From IMG/VR virus record IMGVR_UViG_2706794691_000001: a DNA stretch of 7,330 nucleotides, one strand, 5' to 3'. Under the pieces are notes generated by a model. That model worked only from the letters and a program-made list of their open reading frames with translations. It ran no database searches and was not told where the DNA came from. Below are positions 6,091 to 6,771 of this stretch, piece by piece. Each line of letters begins with the position of its first letter. Within the stretch, counting starts at the first letter, position 1. The translations under genes were made by a program, and so were the position numbers. Source of the stretch: a virus. Taxonomy: Duplodnaviria; Heunggongvirae; Uroviricota; Caudoviricetes.

Positions 6091-6120
6091 TTGTAAATGT
6101 AAGGTGTTTAAGCCTAAATT
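6091..6120 (+). promoter_or_regulatory. Candidate sigma70-like promoter for the plus-strand accessory gene (TTGTAA -35, about 18 bp spacer, TAAATT -10).
   Basis: Hexamers read by eye in the AT-rich stretch 55 to 85 nt upstream of ATG 6174. Each hexamer matches consensus at 4 of 6 positions. Not scored computationally. Confidence 0.2.
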
Positions 6121-6173
6121 AAGTCGTATCACGGTTAAATAGCAAAGAAAAATTCACAGAAGGAAAGACATTG

Positions 6174-6683
6174 ATGGAGTGGATAAATGCTTTGATGAAC
6201 TATTTTGTACTTCATCCATATCGCCTATGGGGGCTTCTTTTTATAATAGCGTTCACAAAATCCACTTTACTCATTTCGGCGATATTGCCACCAGCATCAA
6301 TTATGATGGCCACTGTAATTACAGTCAGCAAGACGACTCTTTCACCATGGGAAGCTGGAATCACGGTCATGAGTGGCGCATGGTGCGGTACTATCGTTAA
6401 TTACCATCTTGGTATAATAATTGGGCATATCCCTCAACTTGCATGTATAATATCAAGCCGTTCCAATACAATAGAACGGGTTCGCCTTCAGTTGCAAAAT
6501 AACTCTGTGTCAATACTTTTCACTTCGCGCTTTATCGCCGTGCTGCGTTATATTGCTCCTTTGGTGGCAGGAATGTTGCAACTTCATCCAGTGAAAGTGT
6601 ATACAGTGAGTCTGATTTCAGCTGCTAGCTGGTCAGCACTTTATGTTGGTAGTTTTAGCTTCGTGTTGCCTTTTTTTAGCTAA
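6174..6683 (+). CDS. DedA/VTT (SNARE-associated) family-like inner-membrane protein, 169 aa; prophage accessory (moron) gene.
   Basis: ATG at 6174 with an AAGGAAA Shine-Dalgarno 9 nt upstream (the ORF track starts it 3 nt earlier at TTG 6171). Hydrophobic, multi-TM-like translation. Motifs GTIVNYHLGIIIG and SRFIAVLRYIAPLVAGM match the DedA signature (E. coli YqjA GRFIAFVRTLLPTIAGL, recalled from memory). About 38% GC in hand-counted 60-nt stretches versus about 53% in a terL stretch. Opposite strand to all neighbours. Confidence 0.7.
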   Translation: MEWINALMNYFVLHPYRLWGLLFIIAFTKSTLLISAILPPASIMMATVITVSKTTLSPWEAGITVMSGAWCGTIVNYHLGIIIGHIPQLACIISSRSNTIERVRLQLQNNSVSILFTSRFIAVLRYIAPLVAGMLQLHPVKVYTVSLISAASWSALYVGSFSFVLPFFS

Positions 6684-6771
6684 ACTGCCCATAAAAAGCT
6701 CTTGCGAATCCAGCTTCCCCCATTCCTCTGACAACAGAATCTGATTTGAAGGATAATGAGTAAAATTACCG

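Follow-up and report, generated by a model that had tools for sequence, protein, structure and literature searches.

A short DedA-family protein without conserved membrane carboxylates, carried as a moron between the lysis and terminase genes of a Shigella prophage

The locus and its oppositely oriented gene

The window analyzed here, by which we mean the whole 7,330-nt stretch of IMG/VR record IMGVR_UViG_2706794691_000001, is the late region of a temperate phage. Its head genes, a DUF1073 portal gene, the large and small terminase genes (terL and terS) and the Rz/Rz1 spanin genes lie on the minus strand, and our subject is a gene between Rz/Rz1 and terS that runs on the plus strand and encodes a short protein of the DedA/VTT family. 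In the list of open reading frames (ORFs) it is the sole credible plus-strand gene, the remaining plus-strand ORFs all overlapping minus-strand phage genes. An earlier note on this DNA had described the stretch 6091-6771, which corresponds to the ORF plus its leader and trailer, as the only plus-strand gene in the window and as inserted between Rz/Rz1 and terS, and both statements are borne out by the ORF list and by the identity of the flanking genes. The features of the locus are as follows.

6174-6683, plus strand: short DedA/VTT gene, 169 aa from the ATG (ORF list, Pfam, RefSeq identity, alignments, AlphaFold2 model)
5984-6781, no strand assigned: whole insertion relative to phages with adjacent terS and Rz, 798 bp (blastn against L002 and L003)
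6099-6693, plus strand: mobile cassette (75-bp leader, ORF and 10 bp), 82% nucleotide identity to a Citrobacter youngae prophage (blastn boundaries)
6772-7254, minus strand: Rz i-spanin, convergent with the DedA gene (Pfam Phage_lysis, 103.7 bits; PHROG 13, 245 bits)
6816-7022, minus strand: Rz1 o-spanin, embedded in Rz, with a VVGC lipobox and Pro-rich (Rz1 is annotated in the homologous region of L002)
5212-5976, minus strand: small terminase subunit gene terS, divergent from the DedA gene (PHROG 370, 319 bits)
3858-5261, minus strand: large terminase gene terL, Terminase_3/PBSX type (Pfam Terminase_3, 131 bits)

An alternative TTG start at 6171 would give a DedA protein of 170 aa, and it is from this start that the identical gene is annotated in RefSeq, as "DedA family protein" WP_011069285.1. 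The head genes show 93% identity to the temperate myoviruses vB_EcoM-606R2, 689R2 and their relatives, and ~82% to Salmonella phage SEN34; by this similarity, the host phage is a SEN34-like temperate myovirus.

Comparison with phages in which terS and Rz are adjacent, namely an E. coli prophage (L002) and the Klebsiella phage ST16-OXA48phi5.2 (L003), delimits the insertion precisely. By blastn, homology of the flanks stops at 5983 and resumes at 6782, so the inserted DNA comprises the 798 bp from 5984 to 6781. Where the gene is missing, the terS-Rz junction spans 57 bp (L002), 208 bp (L003) or 61 bp (vB_EcoM-606R2). The DedA ORF has a G+C (GC) content of 41.8% (38.2% at third codon positions) as compared with 52% for its flanks, and the values for terL, terS and Rz are 48.9%, 51.2% and 53.2%, respectively, with 40.5% for the stretch 6091-6771. 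The gene had been called compositionally foreign on the basis of ~38% GC against ~53% in terL; the direction of the difference was right, while both figures were wrong.

The gene is a phage moron, that is, an accessory, oppositely oriented and compositionally foreign gene in the lysis-terminase slot. It is absent at this junction in close relatives, distinct in composition and found as a cassette in otherwise unrelated phages (see below). As for a promoter and terminator of its own, the gene is oriented against its neighbors and is preceded by a conserved leader with a -10-like hexamer and a direct repeat upstream of it; neither a consensus sigma-70 promoter nor a terminator was found. Its proposed place in a bor-like slot for lysogenic-conversion cargo holds as far as accessory-gene status goes, the 798-bp insertion being absent from relatives. 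The position and orientation of bor in phage lambda are general knowledge, and Bor is an outer-membrane lipoprotein. Like lambda bor and P22 pid, the gene is a single accessory gene of the late region, close to the lysis genes and to where the packaging and structural genes begin, that lies against the late transcript, differs in composition from its surroundings and is missing from close relatives. However, its product is unrelated to Bor, and the cargo here is a chromosomal paralog that is conserved and whose donor clade can be traced. Both the moron concept (PMC3594210) and the P22 late-region moron (PMC3573128) have been described previously.

The exact protein is found on at least 1000 contigs, mostly of Shigella flexneri and also of S. 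sonnei, S. dysenteriae and E. coli, and it is carried by 6 of 5426 complete E. coli genomes. In one genome, FDAARGOS_943, the gene lies inside a prophage that is riddled with insertion sequence (IS) elements beside ybhA-modC. The host prophage is widespread in S. flexneri, with one or more of the sequenced copies plainly defective. The earlier note had asked whether this might be a common, already characterized prophage gene; common it is in Shigella, under generic names, and we found no characterized function for it. A close homolog is absent from 50,697 GenBank phage records, with no DNA match either; the only protein matches among these records (24-30% identity) lie at the ends of records or in records that are unannotated or resemble host DNA, and were treated as probable host DNA.

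Several side observations concern the neighborhood. IS-sized insertions or rearrangements occur right beside the DedA gene, at about window positions 6772-6776 and 6839, on three contigs (L036 ~6599-8050, L037 ~6666-9757 and L035 2314-3646), and an IS2 lies inside terL on a fourth (L001 17590-18818), the DedA ORF being intact in all such IS-affected copies. The mechanically called terL ORF reaches a TTG at 5369, which would give a 158-nt overlap with terS; the fragment boundaries of RefSeq in L001 and the translation point to the ATG at 5261 (50-nt overlap) as the probable start. Finally, masked runs of N at 2742-3017 and 3415-3568 fall within the DUF1073 portal gene, which is therefore only partly readable in the window.

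Family membership, key residues and predicted structure

DedA/VTT proteins are universal and have recently been tied to lipid-carrier and phospholipid flipping and to colistin resistance, as have the eukaryotic TMEM41B and VMP1 to lipid scrambling, and the role of their conserved charged residues is still debated. To our knowledge, no experimental structure of a DedA/VTT protein exists. That the gene encodes such a protein, which had been suspected from its motifs, is confirmed by a profile search, in which the Pfam VTT_dom profile (PF09335) matches residues 41-161 over profile positions 3-121 of 123 with 52.4 bits, against a cut-off of 33.9. The equivalog profiles of NCBIfam stay far below their cut-offs, with 31 bits against 236 for DedA (PRK10847), and 19.9 against 250 (NF052604) and 16.3 against 300 (NF052605) for UptA.

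We aligned the protein with the six DedA paralogs of E. coli K-12 (NC_000913.3) using MAFFT, which gives the following correspondence between residues of YqjA and of the window protein.

YqjA E39: window K29
YqjA G50: window P40
YqjA D51: window A41
YqjA S52: window S42
YqjA R130: window R119
YqjA R136: window R125

This confirms the substitutions that had been proposed from a hand alignment, Lys for E39 and Ala for D51, together with the retention of both arginines. In YqjA, E39 and D51 are membrane-embedded acidic residues that the protein needs in order to function. The arginine pair of hairpin 2, R119 and R125, is invariant in the subfamily defined below. The protein is short because ~11 N-terminal residues and a C-terminal extension of ~45 residues, which contains transmembrane segment 3 (TM3), are missing; its end aligns to about residue 180 of YqjA, and the extension is absent in all members of the subfamily. 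The description of the protein as a short, noncanonical DedA was thus accurate, with regard to the E39 and D51 positions as well as to TM3.

The significance of these residues is best appreciated by comparison with characterized or modeled relatives. In models of YqjA, E39 and D51 form salt bridges to R136 beside the lipid head-group and S52 touches the phosphate, while TM3, the C-terminal helix, lines the lipid tails and is part of the dimer interface (10.64898/2026.09.20.752871). The window protein shares with YqjA, YghB and DedA a VTT domain scoring above the cut-off, a predicted two-hairpin core and Gly-rich motifs, and with YqjA in particular the arginine pair, the serine after the tip of hairpin 1 and a proline (P49 in YqjA, P39 here). 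However, it is only 18-23% identical to these three proteins, has Lys, Pro and Ala where YqjA has E39, G50 and D51, and lacks any conserved membrane carboxylate, TM3 and the ~11 N-terminal residues. UptA of Bacillus subtilis, an undecaprenyl-phosphate flippase of the same fold family, binds undecaprenyl phosphate (C55-P) through R112 and R118 (PMC11474028); this pair and W146 are conserved (W153 in the window protein, where it is invariant), whereas E32, which pairs with R118 in UptA, has no acidic counterpart. UptA E32 has been called the equivalent of YqjA E39 (10.64898/2026.09.20.752871; cf. PMC11474028). The residue spacing (80 from E32 to R112, 79 from D51 to R130) and the coordinates of the NCBIfam UptA profiles would fit D51 better. 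Since the E39 and D51 positions are both non-acidic in the window protein, this equivalence leaves our conclusion unaffected. E. coli YqaA (142 aa) also naturally lacks TM3 and the canonical Glu/Asp pair, with Ala and Asn at these positions. It differs in lacking the arginine pair as well (a gap and Gly in the alignment), is 21% identical and falls outside the subfamily.

An AlphaFold2 model computed from a 58-sequence alignment (predicted local distance difference test score, pLDDT, 85; predicted template modeling score 0.81) displays two helix-break-helix elements, at 15-35/41-52 and 111-118/124-134, and long helices at 58-85 and 139-168. A run from the 20-sequence subfamily alignment (pLDDT 54.5) was discarded. 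Fold searches with the model returned no match with E < 1 in the PDB and only giant-virus VTT proteins with weak E-values in BFVD, and a sequence profile search of the PDB returned none.

Our searches reveal that the window protein belongs to a sharply bounded subfamily with the signature KST..LPPAS..LFTSRFIAVLRY and without the C-terminal TM3, hereafter KST/LPPAS. A word-indexed search yielded 21 clusters, most of them 167-185 aa at full length, and an exhaustive profile search recovered 4812 VTT proteins, of which only 12 representatives score at E <= 1e-30 before a sharp drop. The 20-sequence alignment of the subfamily has 32 invariant columns, among them K29-S30-T31, P39-P40-A41-S42, L115-F116-T117, R119-F120, A122-V123-L124-R125-Y126 and W153, and the window copy keeps all 32. 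Only KST/PPAS-type sequences among the 150 best hits have Lys at the E39 position; Glu stands there in 122 of the 130 lower-ranked hits and, in our curated alignment, in 34 of 36 outgroup rows. The Glu-to-Lys substitution is, on these alignments, the exclusive hallmark of the subfamily. The same is not true of Asp-to-Ala, since the YabI-like outgroup already has Ser, Ala, Thr or Val at the D51 position (Thr in E. coli YabI, Asn in YqaA). The Asp of the "GD" motif in TM2 is acidic in 83% of outgroup rows and in 0% of the subfamily (T73 in the window protein), which has no conserved acidic residue in any membrane segment. Substitutions specific to the subfamily concentrate at the hairpin tips, at 29, 31, 35, 40 and 41 in the first and at 115, 123 and 126 in the second, and this clustering indicates a coordinated remodeling of the putative active site.

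In the profile search, the subfamily is followed most closely (~70-90 bits) by an outgroup of YabI-like proteins and of VTT-PAP2-LssY_C fusions of ~670 aa. These also lack an Asp at the D51 position. They differ in keeping the Glu at E39 and the TM2 Asp, in having Gly, not Pro, before the D51 position, and in being longer or fused to PAP2 phosphatase domains. Proteins P0040, P0041, P0043, P0048 and similar ones (~530-740 aa) are such fusions, and the four that were scanned have VTT followed by PAP2 and/or LssY_C. The link to PAP2 is reminiscent of undecaprenyl-pyrophosphate metabolism.

Chromosomal relatives, Mg2+-linked loci and capture by phages

When one genome per species was scanned, members of the subfamily turned up at 64 loci, in Enterobacter, Lelliottia, Kosakonia, Citrobacter, Hafnia, Arsenophonus and Morganella. 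Identity to the window protein declines from 100% in Shigella and E. coli to 78% in Citrobacter youngae, 74% in C. meridianamericanus, 73% in a soil metagenome-assembled genome, 72% in Kosakonia, 57% in C. amalonaticus, ~50% in about 30 Enterobacter species and Lelliottia, 43% in Hafnia, ~42% in Arsenophonus (endosymbiont genomes of 0.85 and 0.93 Mb included) and ~37% in Morganella. Most members lie in a chromosomal context that is neither phage nor island, beside mgtE or housekeeping genes. A neighbor-joining tree agrees with host taxonomy, and gene GC follows that of the host (0.60 vs 0.55 in Enterobacter, 0.33 vs 0.37 in Arsenophonus, 0.48 vs 0.48 in Hafnia), which together indicate long vertical inheritance. 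The reduced Arsenophonus genomes L086 (AP026064.1, 853 kb) and L102 (CP132903.1, 933 kb) still encode a member. Pairwise ratios of nonsynonymous to synonymous substitution rates (dN/dS) are 0.11-0.25, phage-chromosomal comparisons included. As an observation on a single locus, the chromosomal copy of Kosakonia arachidis (L045 5998-9312) has a paralog of EF-G on one side and, on the other, an L,D-transpeptidase (YkuD) and then an outer-membrane efflux protein; its upstream region is unlike the leaders of the phage, Citrobacter and Enterobacter copies.

This distribution bears directly on the suggestion that the Lys/Ala pattern marks a phage-borne dominant-negative variant. In that scenario, a Lys-for-Glu, TM3-less protein would act as a regulatory partner in altered heterodimers with the host YqjA or YghB, modulating membrane energetics or the recycling of lipid carriers while itself transporting nothing. 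DedA proteins do dimerize via re-entrant hairpins, K29 could pair with a partner's Glu, and the loss of all membrane carboxylates and of TM3, the segment lining the lipid-tail site in models of YqjA, would suit an impaired subunit. But the very same features are invariant in chromosomal orthologs from 64 species under purifying selection, and the gene is kept in endosymbiont genomes of 0.85-0.93 Mb, where a pure inhibitor would be unlikely to survive. Moreover, the low identity to YqjA and YghB makes specific heterodimerization uncertain, and E. coli has in YqaA a short DedA paralog without TM3 that is an ordinary gene of the host. The unusual residues are, as judged from these alignments, traits of a conserved chromosomal subfamily and not the product of phage-specific decay. 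The breadth of the chromosomal subfamily, its dN/dS values and its retention in endosymbionts argue for an autonomous function, and we regard a dominant-negative role as quite improbable.

The chromosomal loci point to Mg2+. In 26 Enterobacter and Lelliottia loci (L048-L078, at ~5600-6000), mgtE is adjacent to and divergent from the DedA gene, and in E. hormaechei mgtE carries an M-box Mg2+ riboswitch scoring 113 bits (L055 5672-5841, minus strand). The gene mgtE is also adjacent in Arsenophonus, downstream on the same strand, and lies ~3 kb away in Hafnia. Together with the PhoP boxes that we predict in the orthologs (see below), this identifies the native chromosomal locus as a putatively Mg2+-responsive one. 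Phenotypes of DedA mutants are known to be rescued by Mg2+ or Ca2+ (PMC10846249).

How the gene reached phages can be traced in some detail. The window and a C. youngae prophage (L004) share DNA homology limited to 6099-6693, plus an 80-bp trace of the endolysin-Rz junction (L004 7800-7879 matches window 7249-7328, the end of the endolysin gene and the start of Rz, at 84%). The backbone of that prophage differs, with a lambda-type GpA terminase, a Phage_portal_2 portal, a GH19 endolysin and a DUF1441 terS. Its DedA cassette (L004 7291-8510) is antisense to the late genes, between the GH19 endolysin gene, which is accompanied by an 89-aa ORF, and an Rz-like gene, and thus on the opposite side of Rz relative to the window. 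Nearly the same boundaries recur in the chromosomal copy of C. meridianamericanus, beside dinI, which has window 6104-6694 in common at 77% nucleotide identity. In a third phage context, an IMG/VR contig (L024 2989-7157), an Rz-DedA block that is 99% identical from window position 5937 on extends 40 bp into terS and there meets a different packaging module, with a Terminase_2 small subunit and a large subunit of 538 aa that is unrelated and has no Pfam hit.

In the neighbor-joining tree, the window copy and that of the C. youngae prophage, both phage-borne, pair as sisters within the Citrobacter/Kosakonia clade. A cassette of ~600 bp would thus probably have been captured once from a Citrobacter/Kosakonia-like enterobacterial chromosome and placed, in the window phage, between Rz/Rz1 and terS in the orientation antisense to the late operon. 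No branch of its clade is longer and no GC lower than that of the window copy, which at codon 91 (6444-6446) has Cys in place of the Arg present in at least 90% of the subfamily (R91C); this suggests that it evolved faster after capture.

The position of the cassette in both phages, adjoining Rz/Rz1 in the window and inside the lysis cassette of the Citrobacter prophage, might suggest a modulator of lysis timing, a membrane protein that tunes holin triggering or spanin function, for example via the proton-motive force; DedA mutants do alter membrane potential (PMC10846249). We find no support for this proposal of the earlier note. In both phages the gene runs against the late operon, whose transcription should hinder rather than drive expression of the gene; close phage relatives lyse without it, and the family is mainly chromosomal. 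Of the explanations discussed here, we give this one hardly any credence.

Leader, regulation and proposed function

The leader carried by the cassette contains three elements.

6105-6122, plus strand: TGTTTA-N6-AATTAA, the proximal direct repeat, separated from the -10-like hexamer by 12 nt
6135-6140, plus strand: -10-like hexamer TTAAAT, 33 nt before the ATG, invariant in a four-way leader alignment
6160-6164, plus strand: Shine-Dalgarno core AAGGA, 9 nt before the ATG at 6174, in a purine-rich stretch conserved in homologous leaders

The Shine-Dalgarno sequence had been noticed before and is present as described. In 31 of 35 orthologous leaders, a repeat of the form nGTT(G/T)A-N5-nATT(T/G)A is followed after exactly 12 nt by a T(T/C)(T/A)AAT hexamer at the same place as in the window, with ~30 nt from there to the ATG. 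PhoP-activated promoters of architecture I have a direct PhoP box, (T/G)GTTTA-N5-(T/G)GTTTA, ~12 nt upstream of the -10 (PMC3335776), and the conserved geometry of our leaders matches this arrangement at the level of sequence. In Enterobacter and Lelliottia, a second predicted PhoP box lies ~20 nt further upstream, a layout that corresponds to architecture II (PMC3335776). This distal box is perfect in 21 of 26 loci and has at most one mismatch in all 26, with 12 different spacers, while the 629 kb of sequence surrounding those loci contain no perfect box; its presence coincides with that of the divergent mgtE.

The window copy is the outlier. It alone has a 6-nt spacer, owing to a 1-nt insertion, and a poor second half-site, AATTAA, which makes its proximal repeat the most degenerate of all, and the distal box was not included in the phage cassette, which begins at -75. 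A scan of 5900-6900 for sigma-70 promoters and terminators found nothing upstream or downstream of the gene beyond shuffle expectation, TTAAAT going uncalled for want of a -35. The plausible promoter of its own with which the gene had been credited is therefore not a consensus sigma-70 promoter; it looks activator-dependent, and is most degenerate in the window copy. Because the proximal repeat is degenerate and the distal box missing, expression in the lysogen remains only plausible.

Three candidate elements were rejected or kept as remarks. Window 6107-6123, TTTAAGCCTAAATTAAG (TTTAAG-N5-ATTAAG), which overlaps the proximal repeat, matches the PmrA/BasR box YTTAAK-N5-YTTAAK with one mismatch, a match that arises from the same 1-nt insertion and G-to-A changes that degrade the PhoP-like repeat; being a single site with 0.24 expected per window, it is kept as a remark only. 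A GC-rich inverted repeat at ~6062-6086 and the trailer at 6680-6780 were considered as terminators or structured RNAs and set aside, with folding z-scores of +0.35 to -1.16 against shuffles. Rfam gave no RNA family match in the window.

These ortholog promoters also bear on the idea that the gene serves superinfection exclusion or another anti-phage function, altering the inner membrane or the lipid-carrier pool and hence DNA injection or the O-antigen receptor. Undecaprenyl phosphate feeds the synthesis of O-antigen, the receptor of many Shigella phages, which provides a possible link, and the position and orientation of the gene are typical of prophage accessory genes, some of which encode exclusion proteins; the product is, moreover, an inner-membrane protein. 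However, the signals in the ortholog promoters are of the Mg2+/PhoP type and not phage-related, most family members are chromosomal and outside phage or island contexts, and no PADLOC defense model matches at E <= 1. This proposal of the earlier note likewise finds no support, and we hold such a role to be very unlikely.

The reading that we favor, and consider reasonably probable, is that of a moron captured from a Citrobacter/Kosakonia-like chromosome and encoding an autonomous, proton-uncoupled, lipid-phosphate-handling DedA with a Mg2+-linked role in the envelope. The head-group-binding arginine pair and the serine are kept while the titratable carboxylate is gone, which probably means lipid handling without proton coupling. 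The protein would accordingly be expected to bind or translocate an anionic lipid, undecaprenyl phosphate or an anionic phospholipid, in the inner membrane and independently of protons. Given the Mg2+-responsive native locus, its likely role would be in adaptation of the envelope to Mg2+ limitation or cationic-peptide stress, that is, under PhoP-inducing conditions. The prophage copy, if still expressed, would confer this envelope trait as lysogenic conversion. While the identity of the gene, the limits of the insertion, the signature and distribution of the subfamily, purifying selection and the linkage of orthologs to mgtE, the M-box and PhoP boxes are established by the present analysis, we only infer what the substrate is, that transport is uncoupled, that PhoP exerts control, and that the gene is expressed and of benefit in Shigella.

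Several points weigh against this reading. The substrate and the "uncoupled" mechanism are read entirely from residues kept or lost, and the AlphaFold2 model is at its least confident (pLDDT ~62) in hairpin 1, where the unusual residues lie. The adjacency to mgtE is absent in Morganella, Kosakonia and Citrobacter, and could elsewhere be partly inherited synteny rather than a sign of function. The proximal repeat of the window copy departs from the PhoP box by three mismatches if read with N5, the phage cassette has no perfect distal box, and neither scan nor folding found a terminator for the DedA gene. Its long branch, low GC and R91C are compatible with relaxed constraint after capture. Lastly, the gene goes unmentioned in the main text of a phoPQ study of S. 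flexneri 301, whose tables of differentially expressed genes were not checked by locus tag; the box screen described there, with up to two mismatches allowed, would have missed the window gene. With a degenerate box and no mention in that main text, PhoP control of the Shigella copy is not something that we claim.

Some of these points would equally suit a largely functionless passenger in Shigella, spread with the prophage, poorly expressed or neutral, the prophage remnant being recent or fixed. The activator site is degenerate in spacer and half-site, with no -35 and no terminator, the phoPQ study is silent in its main text, the copy has the longest branch and is the most AT-rich of its clade with a change at a nearly invariant arginine, and IS elements and pseudogenes abound in the host prophage of one genome at least. 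However, the ORF is intact and 99-100% identical on the 1000 or more contigs mentioned above while neighboring phage genes are IS-disrupted, dN/dS against the sister phage copy is 0.23 and not ~1, and every invariant residue of the subfamily is retained. We consider such a passenger unlikely, but take it seriously as a rival.

The favored reading of an autonomous, captured lipid-handling DedA can be pushed one step further. KST/LPPAS proteins may constitute a carboxylate-free mechanistic class of DedA, induced by PhoP on Mg2+ starvation, which moves or sequesters an anionic lipid carrier in an uncoupled manner and which temperate phages have mobilized into Shigella as a lysogenic-conversion gene for envelope adaptation. 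This bolder proposal is conceivable, and on present evidence doubtful. If true, it would amount to a natural experiment showing that DedA proteins can function without the "essential" Glu/Asp pair, and would for the first time open a mechanistic approach to the connection of DedA proteins with divalent cations, which has long been noted.

Given its generic annotation and commonness in Shigella, the existence of the gene is not new. Our literature search returned nothing relevant on DedA proteins in prophages or as morons and no paper on the gene's accession. As far as the literature searched goes, no one appears to have defined a DedA subfamily that is carboxylate-free and lacks TM3, to have linked it to mgtE, the M-box riboswitch and PhoP boxes, or to have described its capture by, and shuffling among, temperate phages.

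For phage biology, this is a rare moron for which one can trace the clade of the chromosomal donor, the limits of the cassette that was captured and its shuffling among three packaging modules. For the DedA family, a protein that keeps the arginines, replaces Glu by Lys and has neither a membrane carboxylate nor TM3 provides a clean comparative test of whether the acidic residues serve proton coupling or structure, and the association with mgtE, the M-box and PhoP boxes gives the unexplained Mg2+ rescue of DedA mutants a testable physiological context. For Shigella, it brings to attention a widespread, intact prophage gene that may be relevant to the envelope.

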